NCBI GenBank assembly: GCA_965216785.1
Contig: OZ244197.1
Span: forward strand, 2,848,001-2,912,000
Reading direction: 5' to 3'
Source of the DNA: Thermodesulfobacteriota bacterium
GTDB taxonomy: Bacteria; Desulfobacterota_D; UBA1144; Nemesobacterales; UBA2774
Length of the DNA stretch: 64,000 nt
The translations under genes were made by a program, and so were the position numbers. Shown in pieces: positions 34,642-52,963 of this stretch. The notes under the pieces were generated by a model. That model made no database searches. It saw only the letters and a program-made list of their open reading frames with translations, and was not told the origin of the DNA. The first letter of the stretch is position 1, and every line of letters starts with the position of its first letter.

Positions 34642-34724
34642 TGTCTATCCTGTGATCATATGTATGTGAGGAGAATACTAAAAATTCATCCTATTCTGAG
34701 TCGTTACAATCTGGAATGTTGTCG

Positions 34725-35633: not shown

Positions 35634-35710
35634 TCAACGTATCTCCTATCATAACTTTTCTTATATTGCTTTAATCCTAGCACTCTAATATCTATTAATT
35701 AACCTCATGA

Positions 35711-36445: not shown

Positions 36446-36473
36446 ACTATTCCTCTCATTACACTTATATTAT

Positions 36474-36899
36474 TTAGGCTCCGTGGTGCTCGCTGCACTG
36501 AACCCACTTGGGTTCTCCACTCGTATAATGCTCCTTTTTCCATATCGGGAGTCTGTGCTTTATTTCATCAATCATATACCTGCAAGCATCAAACGCGCTC
36601 CCGCGGTGCTCTGCAATAACCCCGATCCAAACCGCTATGTCCCCAATGGCCAGATGCCCCTGGCGGTGCACCCCTACTACCTCTAAAATGTTGAACTTCT
36701 CCTTTGCCTCCGCCACAATGCGGAGCGCTTCTTTTACGGCAAGCTCCTCGTAAACCTCGTATTCAAGCGAGGTAACTTCTTCTCCGTCATTATGATTGCG
36801 TACCCTGCCCTCAAAACACACAAATGCCCCGGCCCTTGAATTTATCAGCTCTTTAGTAAGAAAATCGGTATCTATAGACTCATCGGATATCGAGAACAT
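36474..36899 (-). CDS. moaE: Molybdopterin synthase catalytic subunit
   Basis: GAFVCFEGRVR, LEYE, HRQG, HRG-AF and PIWKKE. Confidence 0.95.
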   Translation of the reverse strand: MFSISDESIDTDFLTKELINSRAGAFVCFEGRVRNHNDGEEVTSLEYEVYEELAVKEALRIVAEAKEKFNILEVVGVHRQGHLAIGDIAVWIGVIAEHRGSAFDACRYMIDEIKHRLPIWKKEHYTSGEPKWVQCSEHHGA

Positions 36900-36902
36900 T
36901 CA

Positions 36903-37154
36903 TTAACCTCCCGCCACCGGGGGAATGAAGATGACACGATCCCCCGAGCATAGAGCTGTATCCATACTCTGGAACTCTTCGTTAATCGACACTCTGATGC
37001 TCCTTGAATCTTGAGGGAAACCGTATTCCCCCGAAAGGTCTTTATATAGCTCCTGGGGAGTCGCGGCGAAAGATTCTATATCTTCCTCTCTCTTCCCGGC
37101 TTTCTCTCTCAACATTGCATAGTAATGAATATTTAAGACTTTGGGTTTTTCCAT
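36903..37154 (-). CDS. moaD: Molybdopterin synthase sulfur carrier
   Basis: YAMLRE; C-terminal FIPPVAGG. Confidence 0.95.
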   Translation of the reverse strand: MEKPKVLNIHYYAMLREKAGKREEDIESFAATPQELYKDLSGEYGFPQDSRSIRVSINEEFQSMDTALCSGDRVIFIPPVAGG

Positions 37155-38341
37155 TACCGTTCTCCTTTATCTAAATTGGATTTTGCTGTTTTAAATTCCT
37201 CTTCATTGTTAATATTTTCGAGATTTTCACGCTCTGTCTGTTCGACCGTTTCCACCGGTGAGTGCATGAGAATGTCTCTTGGGGACATGTTGCCCGCTGC
37301 GAGATTCTGAAGGAGCCTTAGTCTTATTTTAGGCTCATAGATAGAGCAAAGAGGCTCTGGGAGATCGCCCTTAGCGCTACTGAAACAGGTGGCTATTTTC
37401 AAGGGATTTCGGTTCTTTAAAAGCCTCTCAATAGTCTCTCGGTCCACATAAGGCAGATCGCAGGCAACCACAAGCCAGGCCGCTTGAGGATGAGCGTGCA
37501 TTGCGGAGAGAATTCCCGAAAGTGGGCCCAACCCGATGAATACGTCATGTATCTGAGGCAGTTTCCCCAAACTCTGAGCTTTCCACTGATCCTTTTTGGA
37601 CGATATGAATACTTTGCCGCAAACCTCAGACAAAAGCCTGTAAACCACCTCTGCCTGAGGCCGTCCGTGATAATCGATCATGGCCTTGTCCCTATCCATT
37701 CGCCGGCTGTCGCCACCTGTGAGCACAAGACCGTAAAGAGGCGTCTCTGAAGCTAAAGCGGCAAGATACTCTCTGATAAAATCTACGATACCAAAAACGT
37801 CATCCCGATGAAAATAGGGCGCGTCTACGGGAAGTCTGTCAACTCTTTGTTCTGAGCCGATAAAGCCGATTACGTTTTCTATATCACCGCAAGATACGGA
37901 GCTTAGAATCTCCTTCTTATCATCTATTAATAAGAGCTTATTAACGAGCGTTTTCTTAAAACCTTCTATGAACACTAAATCACAGGAGTTAAACGCGGCC
38001 TGTATCTCTAATGGCGTAGGCACGCCCCTATGAATATTGGCCGTATGGCGGGAATCTGAGATAGAGATGCGGGAAGCCCCGCTCGACCAGGCTCTTTGCG
38101 TATCCTTCCCCTCTTTATCTATCTCAAACTGATGTATGCCGTATTTTATATAGCCAATATCGAACTCTTGGCTTAAGCTCTCGATAAGGCGCGTAATCAG
38201 AGTCGTTTTCCCCGTATTTGAATAACCGCAGATCGAGATTTCGAAGGGATGAAATATATACCCGTCCTGAGCTACAGCGCTCTGGCCGCTTGAATCGCGT
38301 TTGATATCCGTAATCCCGGTAATGTTTTTAAAATCTTCCAT
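37154..38341 (-). CDS. mobAB: MobB-MobA fusion (MGD biosynthesis)
   Basis: N-terminal GYSNTGKTT and IEGFK; C-terminal LTGGDSRRM-DK, GPLSG, VACDLP and EPLC-IY. Confidence 0.9.
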   Translation of the reverse strand: MEDFKNITGITDIKRDSSGQSAVAQDGYIFHPFEISICGYSNTGKTTLITRLIESLSQEFDIGYIKYGIHQFEIDKEGKDTQRAWSSGASRISISDSRHTANIHRGVPTPLEIQAAFNSCDLVFIEGFKKTLVNKLLLIDDKKEILSSVSCGDIENVIGFIGSEQRVDRLPVDAPYFHRDDVFGIVDFIREYLAALASETPLYGLVLTGGDSRRMDRDKAMIDYHGRPQAEVVYRLLSEVCGKVFISSKKDQWKAQSLGKLPQIHDVFIGLGPLSGILSAMHAHPQAAWLVVACDLPYVDRETIERLLKNRNPLKIATCFSSAKGDLPEPLCSIYEPKIRLRLLQNLAAGNMSPRDILMHSPVETVEQTERENLENINNEEEFKTAKSNLDKGER

Positions 38342-38364
38342 AGCTATGGACTCTGTCGCTAAAA

Positions 38365-39339
38365 TCAGCCTCCTATCTTATACATATCCTGCTCTACGCG
38401 CTCGATCCTTCTATACGGTTTCATCTTAAGTAGCTCGTTTAATTTACTTTTAAATTCCTGAGGCTCTACATCACGTATGTATACGCCGTCCTCCGACATC
38501 AGGCAGGCCCTTAAAAATCCGTCCGCAGAGAGCCTCCATCTGGAGCAATTACGGCAGAATGGAAGGGTCTCGGAGGCAATAAATCCGATACTGGCCCCTG
38601 TTGCAGTCTTGAAGTTAAAAGAGGTCGAATCACTCTCTGACTGCTCGCTTATTAGCTCCACCTGACTCGATATTTTCTGAATTGCTTGCGCAGCGGAGAC
38701 AAAGAGCTTATCTTTAGAGCCGCCCGCCTGCCCAATGCTCATGAGCTCAAGGAACCTCACCTGAATTCCGTGATCGGCAGAAAATTTTATAAAATCCAAT
38801 ATCTCGTGCTCGTTAATTCCACTCATGAGCACTGTATTGATCTTCACATGAAACCCAAGCTGTTTGGCGCGCAAAACCGAATCCAGAACCTTATCGAAGT
38901 AGTCTCTTCTCGCGATACGGTTAAAAGTATCCTTGGTGAGCGAATCAAGACTTATGTTGATGTGCTTACAGTTGGTATCATTTAAGAAGTCGAGCTCTTT
39001 TGTTAAATTCCAGCCGTTTGTGGTAAGCCCGAGCTTCTCAAGCGGAAGTGAAGAGAGGCGAAGGACAATATCCCTGAAATCCTCACGTAAAGTAGGCTCT
39101 CCGCCCGTTATACGTATCTGCTCCAATCCGAAATTAACTAAAGTAGAGCATACGCTCTCGATCTCATCCGGGCGAAGCCAACGTGATGAATCCATAAATA
39201 CAGGATTTAGCGGCATACAGTAAACACAGCGGAAATTGCACGCATCCAGAAGAGAAACCCTGAGTTTTCTGATCCTTCTTCCATAGTTGTCAATTAGCGG
39301 TACGATAGGTTTAACGTTCATAGCGGTTGTCCTCTCCAC
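38365..39339 (-). CDS. moaA: GTP 3',8-cyclase
   Basis: LRVSL, CNFRCVYC, ITGGEP, FCRNCSR and C-terminal IGG; the start may be the second Met (39318). Confidence 0.95.
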   Translation of the reverse strand: MERTTAMNVKPIVPLIDNYGRRIRKLRVSLLDACNFRCVYCMPLNPVFMDSSRWLRPDEIESVCSTLVNFGLEQIRITGGEPTLREDFRDIVLRLSSLPLEKLGLTTNGWNLTKELDFLNDTNCKHINISLDSLTKDTFNRIARRDYFDKVLDSVLRAKQLGFHVKINTVLMSGINEHEILDFIKFSADHGIQVRFLELMSIGQAGGSKDKLFVSAAQAIQKISSQVELISEQSESDSTSFNFKTATGASIGFIASETLPFCRNCSRWRLSADGFLRACLMSEDGVYIRDVEPQEFKSKLNELLKMKPYRRIERVEQDMYKIGG

Positions 39340-40535
39340 AGGTATAGTGGAAATGCTTTTCCTTTTTCGAAATAATTTTTTTCTTCTGAAAGCTCGATGA
39401 ACCCAGAGCTGTAGGCAAGGGACGTGAAATCCCCCGAGCCGTTAAGCGCGACAGGTGCACCAGTAATTGTCCCGTTCTCACGGTATGTAATTTTGACGGG
39501 CAAGAAGTATGTAAGATCTTTTTCAAATATGAAATCTTCTTCCAAAACTGCATATGGCATGTGTGCCTTAGTATCGATACCTAAAGATTTCCAGAGTGAG
39601 GGCAGTACGTAGCGGTGCAGGCAAACGAGAGCTGAATTGGGGTTTCCAGGGAGCCCGAAAACTCTTTTCCCTTCTTGAGTACAGCCAAACCAAAGAGGTT
39701 TTCCGGGGCGCTGTTTGACCCTGTGAAACAGCTCTTCCACACCAAGGTGTTTTAACGCTCCGGGGATAAAATCGAACTTACCCTTTGAGACCCCTCCGGA
39801 AATAATAACCACGTCCGACGTATCGAGTATTTTCCCAAGTGAGGATAAAATCTCATCCTCACTATCGTGAAGGTGATAACTGTTAATATCGTTAAACTCG
39901 TATGCTGAAAGTGATGTCATGAGAGCATAAGAATTAGACTGTCTTATCTGATAATCGGCGGGTTTTTGATCGACGTCGACAAGCTCGTCCCCGGTGCTGA
40001 CAACAGATATGGGAGGACGCTTGGACACTTTTATGTCCGCACACCCGACTGCAGCTGCGATTGCGGCATATGGGGCGCTTAGCACACATCCTCCGTTATT
40101 GATTACTTCACCCCCTCTACAATCAGTACCCATGCGGTGGACGTTCTGCATTTTTTCCAAAGTGAGAGAGCCATCAATACCCGCTATGCCGTCCTTTATG
40201 CACACGTCTTCGTATCTGATTACGGCGTCTGAGCCCTTGGGGAGCGGCGCTCCTGTCATAACTTCGATACAGTTCTCCGGATTTTTAAGAGCCATCTGAG
40301 GCTGCCCGGCTTTTTGGCATCCTTCAATCGGATAGTCCGTCCGTCCGCTCTCCCTGCTTTGTACGGAGACGGCAATACCGTCCATAGCTGCGCGGTTAAA
40401 CGGAGGATAATCCCTGTCGGCAACGAGGGGCTGCCTGAGCACTTCGCCCTGTATACTGCAGATTTCGGTAAGGGTTGAATCTGCCGGTAACGATCGGCTG
40501 AGAATAATTTCTTCGGCTTTTTTAACTGATATCAT
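39318..40535 (-). CDS. moeA: Molybdopterin molybdenumtransferase
   Basis: PPFNRAAMDG, MTGA, STGDEL, SGGVSKG, RPGKP and LPGNP. Confidence 0.96.
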   Translation of the reverse strand: MISVKKAEEIILSRSLPADSTLTEICSIQGEVLRQPLVADRDYPPFNRAAMDGIAVSVQSRESGRTDYPIEGCQKAGQPQMALKNPENCIEVMTGAPLPKGSDAVIRYEDVCIKDGIAGIDGSLTLEKMQNVHRMGTDCRGGEVINNGGCVLSAPYAAIAAAVGCADIKVSKRPPISVVSTGDELVDVDQKPADYQIRQSNSYALMTSLSAYEFNDINSYHLHDSEDEILSSLGKILDTSDVVIISGGVSKGKFDFIPGALKHLGVEELFHRVKQRPGKPLWFGCTQEGKRVFGLPGNPNSALVCLHRYVLPSLWKSLGIDTKAHMPYAVLEEDFIFEKDLTYFLPVKITYRENGTITGAPVALNGSGDFTSLAYSSGFIELSEEKNYFEKGKAFPLYLWRGQPL

Positions 40536-40700: not shown

Positions 40701-41264
40701 TCATAACGGTTCCACTGTTATTGCTTTCCCTGTTTGGCTTACACAAATGTAGGCGCACTTTCCGCACCCTATGCATTTATCTCCGTCTATTACCGGATAC
40801 TTATCGTCGTGCATGGATATTGCCGACACACCGGGTGGACACGTGTTGAAACAGTAATCACAGTACTGTCCCTGCTTTACCAAACAGTGTTTTAAATCGA
40901 CGTGCGCGGCGCCGATTCTAAGCTCTTTATCGTCATTTTCTCTAAGTGCTAATGGCTCACAGGACTTTATGCAAGGCATGTCCTCACAGAACCTGCAGGG
41001 GGCATAGTACGGGTCTATAAATGGGGTTCCGGCGTTAACACCACCTGTGAGCAGATCAACCAAGTGCACCGCATCGTGCGGGCAGGCTTTCCTGCAGTCC
41101 CCGCAGCGCGTGCACGTAATGAGGAACTGCTCCTCACGGAGCGCCCCCGGAGGTCTTATCGCCGGGCGTTTAAACTTGTGCTTTAGCCCCTTATCTATAA
41201 GCTTGGTGCTTTCTTTAAAACCGAACTTTAAAAATCCTCTCCTGCTCAGCTGCTCAGATTGCAT
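40701..41264 (-). CDS. NapG/MauM/NapF-like polyferredoxin, probably cytoplasmic
   Basis: SRRGFLK with no hydrophobic h-region; RPPGA; four Cys clusters, e.g. CTRCGDCRKAC and CIGCGKCAYIC. Confidence 0.85.
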   Translation of the reverse strand: MQSEQLSRRGFLKFGFKESTKLIDKGLKHKFKRPAIRPPGALREEQFLITCTRCGDCRKACPHDAVHLVDLLTGGVNAGTPFIDPYYAPCRFCEDMPCIKSCEPLALRENDDKELRIGAAHVDLKHCLVKQGQYCDYCFNTCPPGVSAISMHDDKYPVIDGDKCIGCGKCAYICVSQTGKAITVEPL

Positions 41265-41267
41265 ATA

Positions 41268-42989
41268 CTAGTAGCTCCCCCTCATCGCCATAGGCTGGAA
41301 TACAAACCATATCCCTAAAATCCCGATCGCGAGTAAAAGCGCATAATGGGCATAATAAAGACTCCTGCCCTTTGCAGCTTCAGATCCGAACAATTTATCG
41401 GAAATGCTAAAAGACCTTATCTTTAAAATTTTTGCCGAATAGTAAAATCCCAAACAGATGGCAATTAACTGCAGAGCCATCATTGTACCGTGCCCGGCAA
41501 GCGGCCCAGGGGTGTAGCCCTTGAGACCCAGCAGGTTCCATCCCCAACCAAACGGATCGTTAAAAAGCGGGAACAGATATGTGACCTCATCCAGTATATG
41601 CATGAGGTTATGACCTATGTGATAACCCAGCACAACCGGCACCAGGGCATAAATCATCATCATGGAAATACCCTTTTTGCCAAACCTGTGCCCGATGAGC
41701 TTTTCAAATAGGTAGAAAACCGCAAACGAGCCGGCGAGTATTGTAGTGAGCAGTATGGAAAAAACGGACAGATAAGAGAGATCGAGCGCCCTGCCTATTC
41801 CCTCCGTCCATTCCACCCAGATGTTAGTCATAGTAAGCCCATGGAAAAAAGTAAGCACCAGTATAACGTAAATAAGAATCGATTCATCCATCCGGTACGT
41901 CGATGTGTTTTGTAAGTCGTATGCAGGAGGACGAAGCTTCAGGGTCAGATTGTCTTTATCGCAAGAGCGGACGCATTCGGTGCAAAGGGTGCAGTAAGTA
42001 TTCTGGCTTAGTTTGAACGGAACTTCAAGCGTGGGGCATGGAGTGGAATAAGTGCCCCCTCTAACACAGTCTATGGTTTTACAGTCTTTACATACCTGCG
42101 CGTCTTTTTGCCTAAGCTCCAAGGGTGAGAATTGAGCGTAAATACCGCTGATACGGCCTATTGGGCATGCGTAGCGGCAAAAAGAGCGTTTTTCAAATAT
42201 CAGTGCCGACAGTACCGCAATAACCACGACAGAAAGCCCGAGCCAGGCGGTCAGATATGAGTTCTGTGTAAGCTCCACACCAAGCTCAAGCCAGGTGAAT
42301 ATGATGAAAAACACAACTGCCAGATATGTATTTCTAAGGAGCTTTGGCCATTTAAGGTTTAGAGTCTGCACTTTTCCCTTAACCCTGTAGAACCAGCCGA
42401 ACTGAAATAGGTTAGAGAAAAAATCCCACGGGCACGCTGCGCAGAATATCTTTCCCCCGAACGCGACGAAAAATATAAGCAGTGTCCACCAAAATAGCCA
42501 CGTAAACGGAGCGGCCAGGTTTGCCCTTGTGCGGCCGAAGAACCCCGTAGCAAGCACAAGGATAAAAAGTAAGGCAGGTATGAGACGGAGTGAGAATGAA
42601 AAATACGGTGACTTAACCGCCTTCTCCAGAAGCGGGAGCCTGAACAAATCGAACCTTTTCTCTGAAACGGGCTTTACGGCTTTTGCGGCAACCCATACGC
42701 CCACAACAACAAAGAACAGGATCGAAAGCCAAGCGCCGGCGGCGCCCCCGTACATTCCGTGGTGGGCTCCGTGGTCCATGTTCATACCGTGCGCAGGCAT
42801 CTGAACCTCGGTATGGGCTGAGCTTTGCATATCGTGGCCCATTTCCCCGTGCCCTTCGTGAGTATCCATATTCATTTCGTGCCCAGAGCCCTGATCCACA
42901 CCCATACTATGATCACTTTCGGGCATCTCATGCTGGATACTTTTATGATCGTCGTGATTCATGTTTTTATCTTGCATCTCATCTGGCAT
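41268..42989 (-). CDS. NapH/FixG-like membrane polyferredoxin with His/Met-rich N-terminus
   Basis: GKIFCAACPW, FCRYACPIG, CKDC..C..C and CTLCTECVRSC; many TM helices; ~80-aa His/Met-rich leader. Confidence 0.85.
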   Translation of the reverse strand: MPDEMQDKNMNHDDHKSIQHEMPESDHSMGVDQGSGHEMNMDTHEGHGEMGHDMQSSAHTEVQMPAHGMNMDHGAHHGMYGGAAGAWLSILFFVVVGVWVAAKAVKPVSEKRFDLFRLPLLEKAVKSPYFSFSLRLIPALLFILVLATGFFGRTRANLAAPFTWLFWWTLLIFFVAFGGKIFCAACPWDFFSNLFQFGWFYRVKGKVQTLNLKWPKLLRNTYLAVVFFIIFTWLELGVELTQNSYLTAWLGLSVVVIAVLSALIFEKRSFCRYACPIGRISGIYAQFSPLELRQKDAQVCKDCKTIDCVRGGTYSTPCPTLEVPFKLSQNTYCTLCTECVRSCDKDNLTLKLRPPAYDLQNTSTYRMDESILIYVILVLTFFHGLTMTNIWVEWTEGIGRALDLSYLSVFSILLTTILAGSFAVFYLFEKLIGHRFGKKGISMMMIYALVPVVLGYHIGHNLMHILDEVTYLFPLFNDPFGWGWNLLGLKGYTPGPLAGHGTMMALQLIAICLGFYYSAKILKIRSFSISDKLFGSEAAKGRSLYYAHYALLLAIGILGIWFVFQPMAMRGSY

Positions 42990-42991: not shown

Positions 42992-43597
42992 CTAAGCACC
43001 TGCCGTACCCACCTGTTTCCCCGGGGCCTGCTCTTTATTCTTTTGCAGCCTTGAAGTAACGATCTTTAGCATAATTACGACTGCGAAAAACAGGGCGATA
43101 AAGATATATAGCGAGTATTTCTGGAAAAATGTTTGAGTGATCTGAAACGGCATCTCGAGCCTTACGGGAGCACCGTTCTTGTCGGCAAACTCAACATTCA
43201 ACACCAAATCGTCCTGCTCCTTAATTTGCTCCTGTATTACGTAAATGCTTTCCTGCTCGGGTGGGATAAACCCTGTTTTATATACTGTTTTGCCGTGGGA
43301 CAGCACCTCGAAGCTAGCCTCATTTTGAAACACTTTATCTGCCTCGATGTCGTAGATAAATATGTATAGTCTCACATCATCCGAGGATTCGACCTGCTCC
43401 AGATTAAGCCCCTGGAAGTTGTAAACCGTAACGAAGAGCTCATACTCAGGCGTCTCTTTTATAAATTCCAGATAAGGAACCTGGGGATAGTTCTCAAAAT
43501 ACCCGTAATGGGGAAGCCCCTTATAGTGATGGGCTCCCGCACTGATTGCGGGGAGAATGAATATTGCGATTAAAACCATAAATTTAAGCAGTTTCAT
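42992..43597 (-). CDS. Hypothetical exported protein with C-terminal membrane anchor
   Basis: Signal peptide ending AGA, mature N-terminus HHYKGLPHY, C-terminal TM helix; overlaps the upstream gene. Confidence 0.8.
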   Translation of the reverse strand: MKLLKFMVLIAIFILPAISAGAHHYKGLPHYGYFENYPQVPYLEFIKETPEYELFVTVYNFQGLNLEQVESSDDVRLYIFIYDIEADKVFQNEASFEVLSHGKTVYKTGFIPPEQESIYVIQEQIKEQDDLVLNVEFADKNGAPVRLEMPFQITQTFFQKYSLYIFIALFFAVVIMLKIVTSRLQKNKEQAPGKQVGTAGA

Positions 43598-44582
43598 GTT
43601 GTGCTACTTCCTCTAATTTTTCGTATCCGGGATTTGGCTTTTTATAAAGCGGATTTAAGCCGAGCGCTATGTTTGTCGTAGGGCAGTTATCGACGCATTT
43701 GAGACACAGATGACAGGAGTAGAGATCTCCCTCTTTAGGGAATAGTTCCACCGGGCATACTTTATTGCAAAGAGTGCAGCCGCTCGGGCATTTCGAGGCT
43801 TCGACTCTGAGTTTTACAACACTGAACTTTCCTAGATAGGACAATAAAAACCCGGTCGGACATACGGAGTTGCAAAACTGTCCGGGCACAAGTCCAATGT
43901 CCAGCACTAGTAGCGCGATTATGAAATAAAACCCAACATTGAATGTGGAAAATACAAAATATGAAAACATCTCGTGCGTAAATGAGATATAAGGCAGAAT
44001 GAAGTGCCAGACCCAGGCGCCGAATAGGTAGGAAAGCACCAGCCCTCCCCAAAATACTATCACCCTCGTTTTCCTCTCAAGTCTGACTGACATAAGAGGG
44101 ATACCGACCCTGAGCATTATTGAGCGTATATAACCCGTCACGCCGTACAGCACAGTCATGGGACACAACCATGAACAGAACACCCGTCCGAGCAAAAGCA
44201 CCACAACAAAAGGTATGAGCCCCCCGATCAGGTACTTGAGCGGGAATTTCACAGAGTTTATGAGCTCTGAGATTAACCCAAGCGGGTCTGAGAACGGTAC
44301 GCCCAATATCGTAAAGGCCCAGAGGGAGCCGTTATTGGAAGTTGCCGCCGTCACGGGATCATCCCACATAGAGTAAAACCAATCCAGCGCTGCATAAGTG
44401 CTGCCCATCATAGGACCGTAGCTCAGACCCACTAGATGAGAGTGGTTATAAGAGATTTTGTTGTTAGCGTACCAACTGCTGAGCGGAACAAATATAAAAA
44501 ACAGTAATACGCTTAATAGAATAGCGTATCTTAGATACTGGTATTTAGACCTTTTTATTCTAAGTCTTTTTGATCTTTTCAT
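43584..44582 (-). CDS. napH: NapH/MauN-like membrane ferredoxin
   Basis: SDPLG, GRVFCSWLCP, FCNSVCPTG, CTLCNKVCP and CHLCLKCVDNCP; start taken as ATG 44582. Confidence 0.85.
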   Translation of the reverse strand: MKRSKRLRIKRSKYQYLRYAILLSVLLFFIFVPLSSWYANNKISYNHSHLVGLSYGPMMGSTYAALDWFYSMWDDPVTAATSNNGSLWAFTILGVPFSDPLGLISELINSVKFPLKYLIGGLIPFVVVLLLGRVFCSWLCPMTVLYGVTGYIRSIMLRVGIPLMSVRLERKTRVIVFWGGLVLSYLFGAWVWHFILPYISFTHEMFSYFVFSTFNVGFYFIIALLVLDIGLVPGQFCNSVCPTGFLLSYLGKFSVVKLRVEASKCPSGCTLCNKVCPVELFPKEGDLYSCHLCLKCVDNCPTTNIALGLNPLYKKPNPGYEKLEEVAQHETA

Positions 44583-44587
44583 TCCAG

Positions 44588-45160
44588 CTACACCGGACGA
44601 ACGCGTATGGCCTGCGGCATATGTATACACGCCTGCTCACAAAGTCCGCACCCTACGCACTCATCTTCATTCACAATCGGCTGCTCGTACAAGCCAACGC
44701 TAAGAGCCTTGCCAGGAAGCGGACACGCTCTGTAGCAAACACCGCATGTACGCCCGTGATATGAAAAGCAAAGATCCTTGTCAACATAGGCAATGCCCAT
44801 TTTAACTTCTTTTCTCACGACGTCCATATCACGGGAAATCGTCGTCAAAGCTCCGGTCGGGCAAACTTCCGTACAACGCATACAGAGTGTACATCCCTTA
44901 CTTCTGGGAACTACAATGGGCGTGTGTACGTTTTCAAACCCGTACTCAAAACCAGCCATCTGTATACAGTTGTTAGGACAAGCGGTCGCACACTTAAAAC
45001 ACCCTATGCACTGCTCTTTGAACTCAGCTTCCTTAAGAGCCCCTGGAGGTCTCAGGAATCTTATCTTTGCCCTAATCTTATCCCGCGTGGCTATGTAGAA
45101 AACCGGCGTTAGGAAAAATAATGCTGAGATTAGGGCAAAGAAAAACCTTCTTCTGTTCAT
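44588..45160 (-). CDS. napG: NapG/MauM-like exported polyferredoxin
   Basis: MNRRRFFF twin-Arg plus hydrophobic stretch; LRPPGA; four Fe-S Cys motifs. Confidence 0.88.
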   Translation of the reverse strand: MNRRRFFFALISALFFLTPVFYIATRDKIRAKIRFLRPPGALKEAEFKEQCIGCFKCATACPNNCIQMAGFEYGFENVHTPIVVPRSKGCTLCMRCTEVCPTGALTTISRDMDVVRKEVKMGIAYVDKDLCFSYHGRTCGVCYRACPLPGKALSVGLYEQPIVNEDECVGCGLCEQACIHMPQAIRVRPV

Positions 45161-45162: not shown

Positions 45163-45948
45163 TCAGTCTTGTAAACTTCTAAGGTAAGCCACAATGTTGT
45201 TAATGTCGGTCTCGTCAATGTTGGCAAGACCTCTTCCGTGACCAAAAGGCTTCATAGCCGTTCCGGCACGGCCTACCTGAATTGTTTTCTTGATGTAATC
45301 ATCCGACGCTACATCTAGAAAACCGGGGAGACCAATACCCGGACCCGAACCCCCGTCCGCATAACCCCCGCCGTTAATTCCGTGACAGGACGCGCAGAAG
45401 TTACGAAAAGCTTTTTGCCCTTCCTTAGGGTCACCGTCTATAGTAGCCGTCCAATCAACGTGGTAGTCTCTGAATGTAGCATAATCGTTTTGCCAGGATC
45501 TTATATAAACCACGAGATCATCGACGTTATCAGCTACGTTAGGCATTACCTTGTAACCTATCATCGCCGTTCCCGGCCGCCCGTTTAGGATTGTATCCTT
45601 GATATACGTGTCATTGGCAAGCCCTAAGAAGTCCGGGCTGTTGAGCCTCGGCGCTAGCCCTGCCCTTCCTGCCCCGTCGGGCTGGTGGCACGCAACACAG
45701 ATTTGGTTAAAGAGCACTTTCCCTCTTTCTACCTGCTCCTCATCCAACTCGACTGTTTCGGGATGTGGCTCGGGCATGACATCATCACCTGTTGCCTTGG
45801 CGTGCTCATTTTTAGTTTCCTCTTCAGATACCGACTGCTTGGCCGCATTGGCCTTTGCAACAATATCTGTCGATACATCTGTGCCCCCCTGCTCCCCGCA
45901 GCCAATCAACGCCACGATGGCTATTAGTAGAAGTGTAATATTTTTCAT
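45163..45948 (-). CDS. Lipoprotein diheme class I cytochrome c
   Basis: Lipobox LIG-C; CVACH and CASCH; duplicated GR(P/A)GTAM distal-Met motifs. Confidence 0.9.
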   Translation of the reverse strand: MKNITLLLIAIVALIGCGEQGGTDVSTDIVAKANAAKQSVSEEETKNEHAKATGDDVMPEPHPETVELDEEQVERGKVLFNQICVACHQPDGAGRAGLAPRLNSPDFLGLANDTYIKDTILNGRPGTAMIGYKVMPNVADNVDDLVVYIRSWQNDYATFRDYHVDWTATIDGDPKEGQKAFRNFCASCHGINGGGYADGGSGPGIGLPGFLDVASDDYIKKTIQVGRAGTAMKPFGHGRGLANIDETDINNIVAYLRSLQD

Positions 45949-45962: not shown

Positions 45963-48701
45963 TTATGATATCTTTTCAATTCTTGCTGCCAGCTTCTTAA
46001 AGTCGACCTGCCCTGAGACCGGATCATACGCTCTGTGGGATACTCCGTTAACTAGCCATTTATTCTTTTCAGGATCGGCTGAGTCCGCAACGGAGAGGTT
46101 CCACGGGCTAAATACATACCCTTTAGGAACCGTATTCCTGGCCGGCTTAACCACTGAATCAAGCCCTATGGATACTCTGCCCTCGTATTCTCCGCGGCGT
46201 GTAATGAGCTTTACCCACTCACCGTCTTTAACTCCAAGCTCCTTAGCGTCATCAGGGTGCATCTCAACATACTGCTCAGGAACCAACTTTCTCGTTGTAC
46301 CAGAGCGTATGGTTTTCGCGGTGTGGAAGTGTTCGTATACAACACCGAGCCCAAGCCAGAAGGGGTACTTATCATCAGGAACATCGCTCCATTTCTTCCC
46401 GAGGTAATCAAAGTCGGGAAGCTCTGGTGTAAGCGCCATGTCGCGCGCCTTCACTAGAAGCTCTTGATTGTCTATCGCGTAGAAATCTTTCTCTACACCC
46501 AACTTCATCAGCTCATCCGTAATCTCCTTACGCTGTGAGTAATCCTGATCGCAGAAATGCATGTGGAGCTTTCCGTCTTTTTGTCTGAACTCCCCGTACG
46601 GTTTGCCGGGCCAATCGCCTTCTTGCCCCATGTATCTGCGTTTGGTTCCGCCGTTCTTAGCAATCTCGGCTGTGGGTGCAGGCCACTGGATTCCCCTAAG
46701 GTCTCTTATTTGATCATAGAGTCCTTTTCCGGTTTCCTTCTCCACTTCGAGCATTCCGGTAAGATCGGCGTCCGTTCCCTTCGAGGCAATTACAAAGTCG
46801 CGGAACACCTCTTCAGGATCATAGAACCCGTTTTCCTTTCTCTGATACGGGAATATCTTCTCACTATCGAGTCCGAGCTTGTCGGCGATGAGTTTTCCTT
46901 TATCTATTACCATGTCCATGTCGGGACGCGTTCCCTTGATTGGGTTTGCGGTACCGTCACAGACAAAGAGCCTTCTTTCCGACTGAATATATATACCGCC
47001 TACCCATTCTCCCCACGTTGCGGCAGGCAAGATCACGTCTGAATAGAGGTTATTAGGAGCATGGCGGTAGATTTCCTGTGACACGGTGAAACACCTCGTA
47101 AGAGCGGGGCGCACCAGATGGTAGCTGTCCGGAAGGTCAATGTGGGTAGCGTAGATTAAAAACATAGCGTGCACGTCGCCTTTTTGAGCGCGCTCCATCA
47201 TACCGATCGCCATACCCTGGTTGTTCTGTGTCGCCACTTTATCGAGCCTCTCCTGAGGTACTCCCCAGAGATCGGCAATTTTATGACGGTGGGCTTCGTC
47301 GTTGATCCCTATATTAAACGGCAGCCTGCCGGTCAGGCCTCCTGTCAGACGCTCACCCATAGCGTTTGGCTGTCCTGTCTGAGAGTGCGCTCCGCAGCCT
47401 GGTCTTCCTATGTTGCCGGTAAGAGCCATAAGGTTCACAAGTCCGACAGTGTTGTTCTGTCCGTGTATGTGCTGGTTGTAGCCGATACCCCAGAATGTGA
47501 GTACTCCGCCTTTGCCGTTCTTCCTACCTTTTACAGAGGCATCCGCCCACAGAGCGGCTATTTTATATATTTCCTCAGCAGGAACCATGGTCATGGGCTC
47601 TACGTCTTTTGGATTAAATTTAGCCTGTACTTTCTCAATATAGTCTTCCCAACCGGTGACGCTCTTCTTTAAGAATTCGTAGTCAACGGCTTCAGGGTGT
47701 TTCTCCAAGATAGCGTAGGCTATTGCGTTATGTATGGAGATGTCACCGTTTATTGTCTGAAAGTGGAAAGAATTACCAGGGTTGATCTCCTCTAACCCCT
47801 GAACAGAACCCGTTCTTCGGGGGTCTACTATTAAGGTGGGGATGTTATTTATTTTTTTATGGTCCGCCACCCTCCAGAAAAGGATCGGATGAGCTCCCCT
47901 CGGGTTATGGCCCCAGAAGGTGATCATGTCGGCCATTTCTATATCGTCGTAACACGTGGCCGGAGTATCCGAGCCGAATGTTTTGAAGTATCCCGTAACG
48001 GCAGAGGTCATGCACATCCTTGCGTTTGCCTCAATCGTATTTGACCCCAGAACTCCCTTCATGAATATATTCTCAAGATACTGCCCTTCAAGAGTCAACT
48101 GGCCCGATCCGTAAAGCCCTACGGAGTTACCCCCTTTTTCTTTTACTATATTAGCGACCTGCTCAGAGATCAGCTCTTCCGCCTCATCCCATGAAGCTTC
48201 CCGGAAGTCGCTTGCTTTAAAGCTGCCCTTTGTTTTTGATACGTGCCCCTTAAGAGGATCTGACATATCTTTTCTGATTAAAGGTTTCGTGAGACGGTCT
48301 ACGTATATCGCTTCCGCCGACGCGAGCCCCTTGATACACTGAAGGCCCTTATTAGTAGGATGGTCTTTGTCGGGAATGACTCCGACGATTTTACCTTTTT
48401 TAACTTGCAGGATAGTGCCGCAGCCGACTCCACAGTAAGGACACGCGGCCAAAAGATCGTTTTTATATTCAGTATTGGTAAGCTCATACTCCTCGGTCTC
48501 CTGAGAATGAGCTATTTTCCCGTTACCGCCGGTAAAGAGACCTAAGGCTGTCGCAGCAGCCCCGACCCCGGCAGATGTTTTTATAAAATTTCTCCGCCCA
48601 ACATCGGCTAGTTCCGAAGCTTCGGGAGCCTCGGTTCGAAGCTCATGTTTCTTAGCCTCGTCAATAGGTAATTTTACTTCTTTTGATTTGTTTCCCTTCA
48701 T
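45963..48701 (-). CDS. Tat-exported molybdo-bis-PGD oxidoreductase of the nitrate reductase (Nap/Nas) family
   Basis: GRRNFIK Tat motif plus h-region; CPYCGVGC..CIKG [4Fe-4S]; GSGQ; NARMCMTSA (Cys230 Mo ligand); TGQPNAMG; C-terminal MGD-binding domain. Confidence 0.9.
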   Translation of the reverse strand: MKGNKSKEVKLPIDEAKKHELRTEAPEASELADVGRRNFIKTSAGVGAAATALGLFTGGNGKIAHSQETEEYELTNTEYKNDLLAACPYCGVGCGTILQVKKGKIVGVIPDKDHPTNKGLQCIKGLASAEAIYVDRLTKPLIRKDMSDPLKGHVSKTKGSFKASDFREASWDEAEELISEQVANIVKEKGGNSVGLYGSGQLTLEGQYLENIFMKGVLGSNTIEANARMCMTSAVTGYFKTFGSDTPATCYDDIEMADMITFWGHNPRGAHPILFWRVADHKKINNIPTLIVDPRRTGSVQGLEEINPGNSFHFQTINGDISIHNAIAYAILEKHPEAVDYEFLKKSVTGWEDYIEKVQAKFNPKDVEPMTMVPAEEIYKIAALWADASVKGRKNGKGGVLTFWGIGYNQHIHGQNNTVGLVNLMALTGNIGRPGCGAHSQTGQPNAMGERLTGGLTGRLPFNIGINDEAHRHKIADLWGVPQERLDKVATQNNQGMAIGMMERAQKGDVHAMFLIYATHIDLPDSYHLVRPALTRCFTVSQEIYRHAPNNLYSDVILPAATWGEWVGGIYIQSERRLFVCDGTANPIKGTRPDMDMVIDKGKLIADKLGLDSEKIFPYQRKENGFYDPEEVFRDFVIASKGTDADLTGMLEVEKETGKGLYDQIRDLRGIQWPAPTAEIAKNGGTKRRYMGQEGDWPGKPYGEFRQKDGKLHMHFCDQDYSQRKEITDELMKLGVEKDFYAIDNQELLVKARDMALTPELPDFDYLGKKWSDVPDDKYPFWLGLGVVYEHFHTAKTIRSGTTRKLVPEQYVEMHPDDAKELGVKDGEWVKLITRRGEYEGRVSIGLDSVVKPARNTVPKGYVFSPWNLSVADSADPEKNKWLVNGVSHRAYDPVSGQVDFKKLAARIEKIS

Positions 48702-48750: not shown

Positions 48751-48772
48751 ATATTTGACTTCTGTCAAATAT
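48751..48772. promoter_or_regulatory. FNR/Dnr (Crp-family)-type palindrome
   Basis: Perfect inverted repeat ATATTTGAC-TTCT-GTCAAATAT (core TTGAC-N4-GTCAA) between the divergent reductase and rrf2 genes. Confidence 0.7.
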
Positions 48773-48865: not shown

Positions 48866-49318
48866 ATGTTTAGCAAAAAAGTAGCTTACGCAATAAGGTG
48901 TTTGGTTTATTTATCTAATCAAAACGATCCTGTTTTGATTAGGGAAATTTCCGATGAAACGGGTATGCCGCGTCCGTTTTTAGCTAAGATTGTAAATACT
49001 CTGACCAGGAAAGGTTTTCTCCACTCACAGCGCGGCGTTGGGGGCGGCATATCTCTTTCGAGAAAACCAGAGCTAATAAGCATTTGCGATGTTTGCATCG
49101 CGCTTGATGACCCTTTATTAGATGACCAGTGCATCGTGGGACTGCCCGACTGCTCCGCGGAGAACGCCTGCGCCCTTCACGGCTTTTGGTCGAAACAAAA
49201 ACAGGCGATTATAGAATTTTTGACAATTAACACAATAGCCACGTTAGCAGTCACAAATAAAAAAGCGAAAAAGGATCTTTTAAAAGAGGTAAAACTTCAT
49301 AATGCTATTTCCGAGTAG
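48866..49318 (+). CDS. Rrf2 family Fe-S transcriptional regulator
   Basis: YAIR, FLAKI, SQRGVGGG and C-x6-C-x5-C-x2-H. Confidence 0.93.
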   Translation: MFSKKVAYAIRCLVYLSNQNDPVLIREISDETGMPRPFLAKIVNTLTRKGFLHSQRGVGGGISLSRKPELISICDVCIALDDPLLDDQCIVGLPDCSAENACALHGFWSKQKQAIIEFLTINTIATLAVTNKKAKKDLLKEVKLHNAISE

Positions 49319-49430
49319 CCGCTTTATGTTTTAAAGTGTTTTAAAGTATAATTTAGCACTCCGAAGTTATCTGCCAAGAAGAATGCCGCAACTAAAGACA
49401 CTAAACTTTTATTATCAGAGGAGGGGCGCC

Positions 49431-50945
49431 TTGCGATATCTCAAACCAAAATCCGATTTACCTTTACGTCAGTATTTTTCGTTTGCCGCGGTATTTATTG
49501 TAGTTGTTGCCGCCGCTTTTTGTATGTATTTAATTGATACAACTGAAGCGTTAGCTCAAGACTCTCAGGGTTTTTCCCAAACAATAAAGGACCACACAAC
49601 ACTTGGGATTAACGTCAGACTTCGGAACGAGTACTGGAATACATTTGAGAAAAAGGGGACCGACACTGAAAGATCCTATAACTTCTTTCTCATAAGAGCA
49701 AGGGCTTTTGCAGATTTTAAATGGCAAAAATACAGAATCCATATACTCACCCAGGGAGTAAAAGCATTTGACTTCCCAAGAAACGGGGCATTCGGTCCGG
49801 GTCCCCTATACTTCAACGCGAGTGACCGGAAAACCGGTCCCGGCAACTTTCAGTTTGTAGAAGCCTTTTTCCAGTACGATGATCCCGAAGGGTTTTATTT
49901 TACGGGAGGGCGTATTCCCATTCGTGAAGGAGCCGAGGTTCTGTATAAGGACAACCCAAAGTTAAATTGGGTTATCAAAAAGAGGCTTTCAGAGCGCCTC
50001 ATCGGAACATGGGACTGGACGAACATAGGAAGAAGATTCGACGGGGCAAGCCTTGGGTATCACAACTCCACATTTGATTTTAACGCGTTCGGGTCGTGGG
50101 TAACTTTCGGCGGATTTGATTTTGATGACGGTTACTGGAAAGACCTGGATAATGTTGTGGTTGTTGGCGGATCGTTCACCATAAAAGAAGGTGTGCTCTT
50201 GGATAATACCCAGTTTAAGCTATTTAACTATTACTATTTCGATAACAGAAATGTCGCGGTTGATTTTGCCGGTGATGATTTGAAGATAGACACTATAGGG
50301 GTAAACATGGTCGGCGCTTATCCCGCGGGACCGGGGGAAATCGATCTTATGTTGTGGGGTGCGCTTCAGTTCGGGAGCTTCGGCGACCTAGACCAAAAAG
50401 CCGGAGCTTTTATAGGAGAGGTAGGATACCAGCTTACAGAAGTTCCATGGAAACCATGGCTTAGAGCGGGTATAGCATATGCCTCGGGAGACGGCGACCC
50501 GAATGACGGAGATAACGGCACTTTCTTCAATATGGTCCCTACGAATCACAAATTTTACGGCTATGTAGACGCAAACGCTTTTAGTAACCTCGTGGATACC
50601 TATTTGCAGTTCTTTTTATCCCCCCACAAGAGAATCAACCTGGCCGTAGACGGCCATCTGTTTTGGCTGGCCTCGGATGAAGAGGTCTGGATCGGCGGAT
50701 CGGGACCTTTTAACGACGCGGTTTTCGGTTACGCGTTCAGAAACCCGGTCGAAGGGAATAATATAGAGCAAGACCTTGGCGGCGAGATCGACATTGGCGC
50801 AAATATAGTCGCCTTGGACTTCCTGTCGTTTCAAGTCGGATACTCTCACTTCTTTGGTGGAGACGGCGTGAGCGTCGTATTTGATAGGGAAGATAACCTG
50901 GATTGGTTCTATGCTCAGTGCATAATCAACTTCCAGACAAAATAA
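49431..50945 (+). CDS. Alginate-export family outer-membrane beta-barrel
   Basis: RBS GAGGAGG before TTG 49431; signal ending ALA-Q; ERLIGTWDW..RRFDG, YASGDGDPND, PTNHKFYG; terminal aromatic beta strand. Confidence 0.8.
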   Translation: MRYLKPKSDLPLRQYFSFAAVFIVVVAAAFCMYLIDTTEALAQDSQGFSQTIKDHTTLGINVRLRNEYWNTFEKKGTDTERSYNFFLIRARAFADFKWQKYRIHILTQGVKAFDFPRNGAFGPGPLYFNASDRKTGPGNFQFVEAFFQYDDPEGFYFTGGRIPIREGAEVLYKDNPKLNWVIKKRLSERLIGTWDWTNIGRRFDGASLGYHNSTFDFNAFGSWVTFGGFDFDDGYWKDLDNVVVVGGSFTIKEGVLLDNTQFKLFNYYYFDNRNVAVDFAGDDLKIDTIGVNMVGAYPAGPGEIDLMLWGALQFGSFGDLDQKAGAFIGEVGYQLTEVPWKPWLRAGIAYASGDGDPNDGDNGTFFNMVPTNHKFYGYVDANAFSNLVDTYLQFFLSPHKRINLAVDGHLFWLASDEEVWIGGSGPFNDAVFGYAFRNPVEGNNIEQDLGGEIDIGANIVALDFLSFQVGYSHFFGGDGVSVVFDREDNLDWFYAQCIINFQTK

Positions 50946-50985: not shown

Positions 50986-52368
50986 CTAAAACCTCGGATC
51001 GGGATAGTAGAACTTAAACGAGAGCGGGTCGAAATCTCCTGCGGGAGACTCGATAAAGAATTCATAGTGAGTGCGCGGCTCGTAGTTAAAATCCATCCCG
51101 TAGGTACTGCGGTTAATTATAGATATAGGGTGCGTCACAGTCTCATATTCTTCCCTATGAAGCTCCTTTCCTTCTCTCCACTGGATTAGCGTAAGGGGCT
51201 TTGTGTATATTTTATCACCGTCTTTTATGTGAACGTAAAGAGACAGATCGCCGGGCTTATTTTCGTAAGCGGCTCTTCCGAACACTGAGTAAAATACATT
51301 TAGCTCCTTACCGCTTCGGTCTTTTGTAGTAGACTCGCCCTCAAAGAAGGTCTTCTCTAGAACGATATTATGATAATCCTCTTTATCGCTCCACGAGTCT
51401 GCCATGGAGCTCTCAGCCGGCAATAAAAGAAGCAGTGAGACCAAAGCCACGCTTATGAACTTTATCCTTCCGGTAGGGCAATGATCCAGACAGCGCGAGC
51501 ACATATCGCACCTGGGGTCGTTGATCCTGGCCATCGGCGAGAGACCGAGCCAGCACTCTTCCATACACTGCATACACCCCTTTGGACAGCTGAGATCAGA
51601 ATCGTGTCTGAGGCGGAAGACCTTGAGCTTCCCGACTACGCTTAGAAAAATGCCTGTGGGGCATAAATACCTGCAGAAATAACCGGGCTTAGACAACTCA
51701 AATACAACTAAACCCAGAAACAGCGCTCCCCAAAGAGTCCAGCCACCCCATAGTAAAAAATCCGAGACCGAATGCTGAAATATCGCGGGCGGAAGTAGGT
51801 ACTGCAGCACAAGCGGATTTGTGATGACGAGCAAGAAGAGCACTATCATATACACTACCCTACCCTTTTTTTTAAACATCGTTCCGGGAGGAGCCTGCGC
51901 CTTAATTTTTCTTCCAAAAAACTTTCTCTGGATTTTGAGGTTTGTGGATACAATAAGGGACATCGGGCATATATATCCGCAGAATGCCCGTCCGAACAAT
52001 AAAGCGAGACCAAGTGCGATCAGTAATGTCGTAAGGAAAACCCAGTTCCAGGAAGCGGGCTCTAGAACGCTGTTCACAGCCTGCACCGTAATAGTGAGCG
52101 GCTCTGTGAATATTACGGGGAAAAATTTAAACGTGTACGGGCCGCCGGACACATTTTCGTAAATAGGATCGAGCGAGGACCTGAGCCAGTGATCGAACTG
52201 AATAAGAAAATCCCTGCTCCACTGTGTCGTAACAGCGGGAGAGGTGGGGTATGGATAGGGGTCCTGCCTGAATGTTCTGATCAGCTGGAACAGCGGGCTT
52301 ATGAAGAGGATCAATATAATAAATATCTGCAGAGTGCGTCTTACCCATGGGAGTGTTTTATGAGGCAT
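50986..52368 (-). CDS. NapH-like membrane ferredoxin with an extra C-terminal exported domain
   Basis: RBS AGGAGG before ATG 52368; EPL, GRAFCGYICP, FCRYLCPTG, CMQC-EEC and CDMCSRCLDHCP; then a hydrophobic helix and a ~140-aa soluble domain. Confidence 0.85.
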   Translation of the reverse strand: MPHKTLPWVRRTLQIFIILILFISPLFQLIRTFRQDPYPYPTSPAVTTQWSRDFLIQFDHWLRSSLDPIYENVSGGPYTFKFFPVIFTEPLTITVQAVNSVLEPASWNWVFLTTLLIALGLALLFGRAFCGYICPMSLIVSTNLKIQRKFFGRKIKAQAPPGTMFKKKGRVVYMIVLFLLVITNPLVLQYLLPPAIFQHSVSDFLLWGGWTLWGALFLGLVVFELSKPGYFCRYLCPTGIFLSVVGKLKVFRLRHDSDLSCPKGCMQCMEECWLGLSPMARINDPRCDMCSRCLDHCPTGRIKFISVALVSLLLLLPAESSMADSWSDKEDYHNIVLEKTFFEGESTTKDRSGKELNVFYSVFGRAAYENKPGDLSLYVHIKDGDKIYTKPLTLIQWREGKELHREEYETVTHPISIINRSTYGMDFNYEPRTHYEFFIESPAGDFDPLSFKFYYPDPRF

Positions 52369-52963
52369 AATTTTCCTCCTTTGGCAAGACGTATATCGCG
52401 GTCGGGGTTTGCGGGCAGCGCTCTTCGCACCTGCCGCACCCGATGCAGTGGTCTTCATGCACGACGGGCTTTGCCCTTGGGATAAGAGTAATGGCGCTTC
52501 CTTTCAGAGGGCAGGCGTCGTGGCAAATCCCGCATATCCTGCCGTTATAGGAAAGACAATTTGTCTCGAGCACTACAGCCGTTCCCATATCTACTTTTTC
52601 GCTGATCTCCTGAAGATCGCGTTTGATGGGCGAGAGAGCGCCAGAAGGACACACCTGAGTGCAGTTCATGCACAGATTGCATGACCTGATCCTCGTATTA
52701 AGAAACGGGGTTCCGGCGAGCCGCTCGTTCTCTGTAAAGCTGAAAAAGCGTATGCACCCGGCCTGGCACACATTGGCGCAGGCGCGGCACCTGATGCATT
52801 CCTTTACGAATTCGCGCTCGGCTTTAGCGCCCGGGGGGCGGACGTACCTGTGCGCAAGCGCTGAATCTGGGAAGAAAAAATTAAACAACCGGAAGAACTG
52901 GAAAGTGAAACTTACCAGGAGAAATGAAATGAACCATAAAAACTGGTTTCTTGTTATCTTCAA
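52358..52963 (-). CDS. NapG/MauM-like exported polyferredoxin (second copy)
   Basis: TTG start with AAGGAG RBS; TRNQFL Tat-like variant plus h-region; RPPGA; CIRCRAC, CNLCMNC, CGICHDAC and CIGCGRC. Confidence 0.88.
   Translation of the reverse strand: MKITRNQFLWFISFLLVSFTFQFFRLFNFFFPDSALAHRYVRPPGAKAEREFVKECIRCRACANVCQAGCIRFFSFTENERLAGTPFLNTRIRSCNLCMNCTQVCPSGALSPIKRDLQEISEKVDMGTAVVLETNCLSYNGRICGICHDACPLKGSAITLIPRAKPVVHEDHCIGCGRCEERCPQTPTAIYVLPKEENYAS

Follow-up and report, generated by a model that had tools for sequence, protein, structure and literature searches.

An unnamed lineage of Nap- and Nas-related molybdenum enzymes with its own conserved operon, probably a third kind of soluble nitrate reductase

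What does a molybdenum enzyme do that resembles both the periplasmic and the assimilatory nitrate reductases and is named by the profiles of neither? The question is raised by a 64,000-nucleotide stretch of Thermodesulfobacteriota bacterium DNA (contig OZ244197.1, positions 2,848,001 to 2,912,000; here called the window), in which an open reading frame at 45963..48701 encodes a 912-residue catalytic subunit of the type that carries a molybdenum-bis(pyranopterin guanine dinucleotide) (Mo-bisPGD) cofactor and a [4Fe-4S] cluster. Window coordinates below are on the minus strand unless stated otherwise. A preliminary description of this DNA had taken the protein for an exported nitrate-reductase-like enzyme of a separate clade. 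From its reading frame, profiles, fold and phylogeny we place it in a clade related to Nap and Nas, and we consider it probable that this unnamed lineage, neither NapA nor NasA, is a third soluble nitrate reductase, active at low oxygen, that works as Nap does and has an electron-transfer chain of its own.

Profile scores did not assign the enzyme to a named family. Pfam recognised three molybdopterin-oxidoreductase domains, and the NCBIfam scores all lay below their cut-offs: 363 bits against 904 (PRK13532) and 329 against 931 (TIGR01706) for NapA, a threshold that is not decisive alone because the Desulfovibrio-type NapA rows, at 557-765 bits, do not reach it either; 280 against 1000 for NasA and 259 against 1100 for NasC, which are haloarchaeal and Bacillus-type cut-offs that proteobacterial NasA miss too; 330 against 666 for formate dehydrogenase (Fdh); and 125 against 359 for AioA. 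Identity to NapA and NasA rows was 33-39%. We built a quick tree of 80 rows (LG+G4, with support from the Shimodaira-Hasegawa-like approximate likelihood-ratio test, SH-aLRT), whose groups were labelled from hidden Markov model scores, E. coli anchors and familiar motifs (the NasA rows by motif) and whose references included no labelled cyanobacterial NarB. The 17 clade rows formed one branch with SH-aLRT support of 100, outside NapA, NasA and Fdh, and the reference branches formed without them: core NapA (12 rows, support 100), NapA with the Desulfovibrio type (20 rows, 99) and NasA (18 rows, 100). Approximately unbiased (AU) tests of placement on a 47-row subset rejected the clade as sister to core NapA (p=0.0009) and tolerated it both as sister to all NapA (p=0.45) and as sister to NasA (p=0.58). 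We conclude that this is a separate lineage, the depth of whose split is left unfixed by the tree. The separate clade of the preliminary description was thus borne out: the enzyme nests within neither NapA nor NasA, and its substitutions are rare or absent in those rows. In the available part of a survey of MopB enzymes, NapA and NasC/NasA form a single group of poor resolution in data from metagenome-assembled genomes (MAGs) (PMC10100899).

The motifs that had been quoted for the protein were all recovered, with their positions, in the translation. The [4Fe-4S] motif CPYCGVGCG begins at aa 87 (48417..48443) and is completed by a fourth Cys at aa 122, next to a conserved Lys124; NARMCMTSA begins at aa 226, FWGIGYNQH at aa 403, SQTGQPNAMGERL at aa 440 and HFHTAKT at aa 791. 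We mapped residues by sequence alignment onto D. desulfuricans NapA (DdNapA) across 241 clade members. Cys230 (48012..48014), the predicted Mo ligand equivalent to DdNapA Cys140, is followed by Met231, and C87, C90, C94, C122, K124, C230 and M231 are invariant in the clade. The equivalents of Cys140, Met141, Arg138, Asp155, Gln312, Gln346 and Arg354 are kept, together with the electron-transfer Lys between cluster and cofactor. Within GQPNAMGERL (47346..47375), Gln444 (Gln346) and Arg451 (Arg354) are retained and Leu452 replaces Asp355. Met231 stands where 12/12 Fdh rows carry His, and the Fdh motif RGQNN is absent. The catalytic core is thus Nap/Nas-like. On the tree the branch lies among Nap and Nas, apart from Fdh, and both observations speak for our reading.

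Around this core the substrate channel is altered. Glu156 of DdNapA is replaced by Thr in 240 of the 241 members, Asp355 by Leu, Phe or Ile in at least 240, and Met308 by Ile and Ala142 by Thr in all 241. Both substitutions noted earlier, Ile for the Met of MGxNQ and ERL for GRE, are real. In the GIGYNQHIHGQNN segment (47451..47489) I406 occupies the place of Met308 in 241/241 close relatives, and H411, H413 and N417 are invariant; 2 of the 3 deepest clade members retain Met at the Met308 position. E450-R451 likewise does not vary, and at least 240/241 members have L, F or I at position 452, where 20/20 NapA and 66/66 NasA rows have an acidic residue. New invariant residues are Arg268, His413, Asn417, Glu450, Phe792 and Lys796. 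Met308 has a functional role in NapA, and the preliminary description had called this Met conserved; it is so in NapA (20/20 rows) but not in NasA, where the position is Gln in 36/66 and Met in 30/66. Likewise, the Nas-like signatures stressed earlier are present, but GQPNA is also the reading of Desulfovibrio-type NapA (7/8 rows), so that the enzyme is a mosaic of Nap and Nas rather than simply Nas-like. Glu156 is missing from NasA as well, Met308 is often missing there, and in two further Nas-like rows the Arg is followed by Leu. Each channel change taken singly is therefore compatible with nitrate reduction; it is their combination that is specific to the clade. A 2026 review, in the part available, lists Arg354, Asp155, Glu156 and Asp355 as the charged channel residues of Nap and ties positively charged inserts to the high nitrate affinity of C. 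jejuni NapA (PMC13223375). The insertion that had been noted before the C-terminal domain was also found in the alignment, as a clade insertion region at about aa 692-779 (46365..46628) with segments absent from E. coli NapA, a NasA and FdhF.

The AlphaFold model of the enzyme has a mean predicted local distance difference test (pLDDT) score of 91.3, with low values at aa 1-68. Its top fold match is DdNapA (Z 48.1, root-mean-square deviation (rmsd) 1.9 A over 695 residues); formate dehydrogenases are nearly tied with it at Z 44-46. The N-terminus bears a predicted twin-arginine translocation (Tat) signal (48504..48701) with a long charged n-region, RR at aa 36-37 within GRRNFIK, a hydrophobic stretch after it and predicted cleavage near aa 66; the Pfam TAT_signal score, 21.6 bits, is slightly below the 22.7 cut-off. 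A Tat-like motif was matched by regular expression in 217/241 clade members as against 0/66 NasA rows, and tatC is present in the window's genome. We thus predict export of the enzyme through the Tat pathway, and the periplasmic location proposed earlier finds support at the level of sequence. The accompanying statement that NasA lacks a Tat signal holds for all 66 NasA rows, but other Tat-bearing Nas-like proteins exist; five of them (P0129, P0130, P0134, P0146 and P0199) lie outside both NapA and the clade and are scattered in the tree.

The lineage is widely distributed. Among the matches listed, at least 120 homologues were 72-100% identical to the enzyme, with labels from Verrucomicrobiota, Lentisphaera, Bacteroidota, Myxococcota, Bdellovibrionota and Cloacimonadota, and planctomycete members also occur among the records. 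Database names for members are inconsistent (NapA, ferredoxin-nitrate reductase, selenocysteine dehydrogenase). Scanning genomes gave 264 candidate stretches; 250 were confirmed, and 80 loci (60-84% identity) were kept, mostly marine MAGs by title; such record titles may mislead as to host. A second search with a Rhodocyclaceae member (62% identical to the query) returned at least 120 alpha- and gammaproteobacterial proteins at 81-96%. Among representatives at 50% identity, only three full-length proteins, at 56, 50 and 42%, rise above the others, which do not exceed 40%; the one at 50% is from Microaerobacter geothermalis. That organism also has NarGHI (PMC9119079), and its copy therefore gives no information on substrate. 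Carriers are thinly spread, with 2 among 120 genomes of the window's class and 23 among 401 of the class of a Thiotrichaceae carrier, that carrier counted (22 among the 400 sampled). This patchy occurrence suggests horizontal spread of the gene. The sole other carrier in the window's class (L010, genome G066) has a record title that names a different phylum. No clade member was found in the plasmid collection, where the best identities were about 31%, and a metagenome scan with an alignment of deep members yielded 8 clade loci, none of them near the deepest members P0122 and P0123. A description of the clade was not found in the searchable literature, outside which most subscription papers lie.

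Additionally, the enzyme gene belongs to a conserved operon that the earlier description lacked and that defines the system. With AAGGAGG as ribosome-binding site 9 nt upstream of its ATG, it leads a co-oriented run that encodes a cytochrome, NapG-like and NapH-like proteins, a protein that we call X, a large polyferredoxin, a NapG/F-like ferredoxin, Mo-cofactor functions and NnrS. From profiles and alignment, the first partner (45163..45948) is a dihaem class I cytochrome c with a lipoprotein-type signal (LIGC) and with Met129 and Met232 as predicted axial ligands. Both Met residues are invariant across 32 dihaem forms, which makes the cytochrome a class I His/Met type rather than NapB; across loci it bears 2, 4 or 6 haem motifs, by repeat, and its best profile is CcoP of cbb3 oxidase at 51 bits, far under the cut-off. 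Next come the NapG-like polyferredoxin G1 (44588..45160; 131 bits, cut-off 269), the NapH-like membrane ferredoxin H1 (43584..44630; 105 bits, cut-off 234), protein X (42992..43597), the large membrane polyferredoxin H2 (41268..42989; profiles and locus comparison) and, from its profile, a second NapG/NapF-like ferredoxin G2 (40701..41264). The run ends in a co-oriented block at 33442..40535 made up of moeA, moaA, mobB/mobA-like, moaD-like, moaE-like, TauE-family, moaC-like and nnrS genes; moeA, TauE and NnrS were identified from profiles, and the moaA, mobB/A, moaD, moaE and moaC genes are presumably what their motifs suggested on inspection. In 50 loci the sequence extends 7 kb or more downstream; all 50 have G and H homologues, and the cytochrome was found in 48 of them, X in 47 and H2 in 42.

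A profile scan of all six partner genes in the window's operon found no NapB family member. An E. coli NapD query matched nothing in 108 loci or in the genome, although single E. coli queries are insensitive, an E. coli NapB query having likewise missed NapB-like genes in L004 and L030. NapD is described, in the available part of one source, as essential for NapA (PMC10609526), which would make its apparent absence here noteworthy.

Protein X has a predicted signal peptide, a His-His pair, an Ig-like domain and a C-terminal membrane helix. The His-His pair lies at the predicted mature N-terminus and is invariant in 50/50 aligned rows, and the motif region is present in 84/108 loci. Its model (pLDDT 87) is an Ig-like sandwich, for which no credible sequence match was found in the PDB. 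By fold it resembles CrdA (Z 10.4, rmsd 2.7 A, 102 residues), PmoD (Z 9.5) and the P19/FtrA types HftA, Tp34 and FtrA (Z 8.6-8.9), at 8-12% identity to these copper proteins, from which it differs in its N-terminal His-His and C-terminal anchor. Because unrelated Ig folds also reach Z 8-9, copper binding by this possible copper protein is a lead only. In several myxococcal loci X and the polyferredoxin that follows it form a single fusion protein, with frames of 718-901 aa counted from the His-His. H2 begins with about 70 His/Met-rich residues that most homologues lack, judging by length (573 vs about 515 aa), and this start could possibly serve as a metal buffer.

One of the closest known systems is the monomeric NapA of D. 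desulfuricans (PDB 2JIO/2NAP; napCMADGH type). The two share the Cys-Met ligand loop, GQPNA, Arg354, Asp155 and Gln346, NapG/H partners and the absence of NapB, besides the fold. At 31-32% identity in the structural alignment, however, the window's enzyme differs in Thr for Glu156, Leu for Asp355, Ile for Met308 and the long insertion, and its system in the class I dihaem cytochrome, X and the second polyferredoxin, with NapD not seen. Both the NapAB enzymes (E. coli, Cupriavidus, Cereibacter) and the NapC-independent napAGHBFLD systems of Campylobacterota have in common with the clade a Tat signal, the [4Fe-4S] cluster, the Mo-bisPGD fold, the NAR.CM, GSGQ and NQH motifs and NapG/H-like genes; unlike them, the clade reads CPYC rather than CRFC and GQPNAMGER rather than GQPSACGTAR, has no NapB, and is 33% identical to E. 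coli NapA. NasA, NasC and NarB share CPYCGVGCG, GQPNAMG and the lack of Glu at position 156, whereas the clade has the Tat-like signal, periplasmic partners, ERL/ERF instead of GRE and a separate branch. FdhF and FdhA share the fold (Z 44-46) and the Fe-S motif, but the clade has neither His after the Mo ligand nor RGQNN, and the enzyme is 27% identical to E. coli FdhF. (Per)chlorate reductases are linked to cld, and no cld was seen in the clade operon. Barnum and Coates reportedly described in 2020 an uncharacterised chlorate-reductase clade tied to chlorite dismutase, which is said to be a different branch. IdrA has a Rieske subunit, and profile scans found no Rieske gene in the window's operon. 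Furthermore, the AioA-like subunit of IdrA has, according to the available part of the MopB survey, no amino-acid Mo ligand (PMC10100899), whereas Cys230 is invariant in the clade. None of the four nap operon types listed in the available part of the Nap review is like the clade operon (PMC13223375).

The preliminary description had inferred nitrate from NnrS, Rrf2 and an FNR box. Nitrate is still the likeliest substrate, but these grounds have weakened: nnrS lies near the operon in only 4/108 related loci, an rrf2 homologue in 0/50 long-flank loci, and no Crp/Fnr helix-turn-helix domain scored over the Pfam cut-off in the window's genome (one contig, 92% complete). What had been called an FNR box is a perfect 9-bp inverted repeat with a 4-nt spacer (48751..48772, unstranded) between the enzyme gene and a divergent Rrf2-family regulator gene recognised by profiles (48866..49318, plus strand). 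It reads ATATTTGAC-N4-GTCAAATAT, is the genome's single TTGAC-N4-GTCAA, where about 2 would be expected, and overlaps the best promoter-like site of rrf2, in a promoter and terminator scan that was at chance overall (26 found vs 27.7 expected). With no Crp/Fnr gene over the cut-off and with this overlap, the FNR reading is likely wrong and an Rrf2 operator is likelier, or else back-to-back -35 elements.

Stronger backing for nitrate is given by the proteobacterial copies, some of which are close kin. Of the proteobacterial loci with enough flank, 14/26 have an FNR consensus in the 500 nt upstream, compared with 2.8% of random windows, and fnr-like genes are nearby in 8/29. NarX/NarQ-like sensors occur in the flank of 5/29 loci, directly adjacent in L078, L124, L208 and L220, and 4 of the 5 NarX-linked loci matched a P-box-like pattern. 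A NapC/NirT-type gene was found in 14/29.

Co-occurrence with other nitrogen genes was searched in carrier genomes, namely 50 of the 80 first-set carriers and a second set of 22 gammaproteobacterial carriers. The first 50 included a separate NapA-type enzyme in 16 (11 over cut-off), NarG in 2, nrfA in 4, nirK in 7 and nirS in 4; the 22 included NapA in 6 (5 over cut-off) and NarG in 1 over cut-off plus 2 strong fragments. When 10 of the 16 NapA-less gammaproteobacterial carriers were searched, nirS was found in 2/10 and a below-cut-off nirK-like gene in 4/10. Genomes G187 and G331, a single contig each, have nirS and cytoplasmic Nas-type enzymes with no NapA or NarG match, and the clade enzyme is the only Tat-bearing Mo enzyme among the frames listed for them. 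The nirS carriers at L226 and L227 encode, besides NasA, a second cytoplasmic Nas-like enzyme of 726 aa with GQCNAMGTRE. In the window's genome the clade enzyme is the only Nap/Nas/Nar-type enzyme. That genome (G000:C1) also has nrfHA at 2814382-2816374, a cbb3 oxidase cluster and, beside the latter, a nosZ-like gene (418 bits, under the clade I cut-off) with nosD/F/Y/L-like neighbours (2714869-2722172). The nrfA gene was rejected as evidence for nitrate, being a family trait found in 12/32 relatives, none of which carries the clade enzyme. Chlorite-dismutase-family (PF06778) matches occurred in 12/51 genomes, on other contigs or far off, with none seen in the operon; by their motifs most of them resemble coproheme decarboxylase. 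A 240-aa type of this family, which matches only the C-terminal half of the profile, carries IRLxxHGLD and could be either a Cld or a coproheme decarboxylase, occurs at G000:C1:1457168-1457893 and in the L119, L122 and L123 carriers. Near the loci no family of assimilatory nitrite reductases or nitrate transporters was recognised as recurring around the 80, by inspection rather than a dedicated profile search, and PF01077 fails to separate nitrite from sulfite reductases.

Several of these results weigh against nitrate reduction. Three substrate-channel positions are unlike every NapA row. In the group to which the window belongs, the 79 non-proteobacterial loci, no NarX was found, and only 4/67 first-set loci had an FNR box. 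A separate NapA occurs in 22/72 carriers; nrfA, nirK or nirS was present in 8/16 carriers with NapA vs 7/34 without (Fisher p=0.049, with kin not independent and incompleteness ignored), and 26 of the 33 carriers without Nap or Nar showed none of the three (MAGs of unassessed completeness). The evidence is thus mixed, in that regulators and core residues favour nitrate while NapA redundancy and the scarcity of nitrite reductases keep another oxyanion open. We judge it rather unlikely, though likelier than the other alternatives, that the enzyme is a periplasmic reductase for such an oxyanion of seawater (iodate, chlorate, bromate, selenate or similar), derived from Nap/Nas stock and using nitrate at most as a side substrate. 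The invariant channel changes (T246, R268, I406, E450, L/F452) and extra His residues, the very high conservation across phyla, the mostly marine origin of named records, the coexistence with NapA and the weak link to nitrite reductases would all suit this explanation, and the His/Met cytochrome suggests a high-potential acceptor. It is opposed by the NarX-type sensors beside 5/29 proteobacterial copies, by chlorite-dismutase-family matches that are few and unlinked to the operon, by the lack of a Rieske subunit or Aio-like site as in IdrA, and by cytochrome c peroxidase-like neighbours at only 6/80 loci. Slightly less probable again, and offered as speculation, is that the lineage respires iodate or another seawater oxyanion that is not nitrate, is dedicated to that substrate and has passed between marine phyla by gene transfer. 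Its rebuilt channel (R268, H411, H413, E450, L/F452) and the His-His partner, which resembles copper proteins, would then point to a second metal site near Mo; we know of no such second site in this enzyme family.

Alternatively, the enzyme might oxidise its substrate (formate or nitrite, for instance), with electrons passing through the His/Met cytochrome to terminal oxidases. The CcoP profile as the cytochrome's best match, Fdh folds that score within 3 Z units of NapA, and the many carriers in groups usually described as aerobic are consistent with this. We regard it as very improbable, because the ligand loop is Cys-Met rather than Cys-His, RGQNN is absent, the tree position is with Nap and Nas, and the gene is linked to NapG/H/C-type quinol dehydrogenases and anoxia boxes. 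Least probable of all is that the protein is merely a divergent ordinary NapA or NasA, or an assimilatory enzyme of the cytoplasm with a vestigial signal. The AU tests tolerate a sister position to broad NapA or to NasA, the Pfam Tat score is just under its cut-off, and database labels read NapA or ferredoxin-nitrate reductase; against these stand the low NapA, NasA and NasC scores and 33-39% identity, the branch with support of 100, the conserved Tat-like motif and the periplasmic partners.

If, as we prefer, the enzyme reduces nitrate in the manner of Nap, quinol would be oxidised by the NapH/NapG-like pair, and electrons would pass to the membrane-anchored His/Met dihaem cytochrome, in NapB's place, and then through the [4Fe-4S] cluster to the Mo bound by Cys230; there nitrate, positioned by Arg451 and Gln444, would give up one oxygen atom. 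The role of NapGH as a quinol dehydrogenase is debated, since in C. jejuni electrons reach Nap via the Qcr complex, according to the available part of one study (PMC6195509). The window's genome has an alternative-complex-III-like cluster, named by inspection, which could feed the cytochrome instead of NapGH. With the acidic Glu156 and Asp355 equivalents lost and Arg268 gained, the channel would carry less negative charge; this may increase its affinity for anions and so explain coexistence with an ordinary NapA. Protein X and the second polyferredoxin may serve metal supply or maturation.

The lineage is common, yet the curated NapA and NasA profiles do not name it. Should it reduce nitrate, the nitrate respiration and nitrite supply of low-oxygen seawater and sediments are larger than surveys count, and some seemingly truncated nirS denitrifiers would be complete; should it act on another substrate, it would represent an unrecognised marine redox process. 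The clade is also a natural set of channel variants in which the basis of Nap nitrate specificity can be tested, and cultured carriers are on record (Lentisphaera profundi, Ruegeria sp. HKCCD8929 and Microaerobacter geothermalis).

Other features lie around the operon. In the window, an alginate-export-family outer-membrane barrel recognised by Pfam (49383..50945, plus strand) adjoins the operon in 2/80 loci. It is followed by a third NapG-like/NapH-like pair, G3/H3, identified by profile (50986..52963); a G3-type gene was the best match in 11/80 loci, and the pair lies in or beside the operon at some others. H3 has an extra C-terminal soluble domain, for which no confident match was found and only weak atlas matches (below 0.9) were returned. 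L004 (17963-20992) and L030 also have a canonical napA, accompanied by a NapB-like cytochrome, about 10 kb or less from the operon. Cytochrome c peroxidase-like dihaem proteins follow or lie near the operon in 6/80 loci (L025, L032, L038, L042, L047 and L065); these loci are mostly verrucomicrobial, and the neighbours could be lineage background. A thioredoxin-domain protein of about 700-870 aa, which we take to be YyaL-like, is near the operon in 8/108 loci across phyla (L004, L006, L011, L074, L078, L079, L124 and L220), and the window's genome has one elsewhere. Finally, haem-synthesis genes flank the region (window 1725-4615 and 30523-33425), converging on nnrS; they encode HemD-like and ferrochelatase-like proteins, named by inspection, a HemY-like oxidase and a TIGR04053 radical SAM protein that scored over its cut-off.

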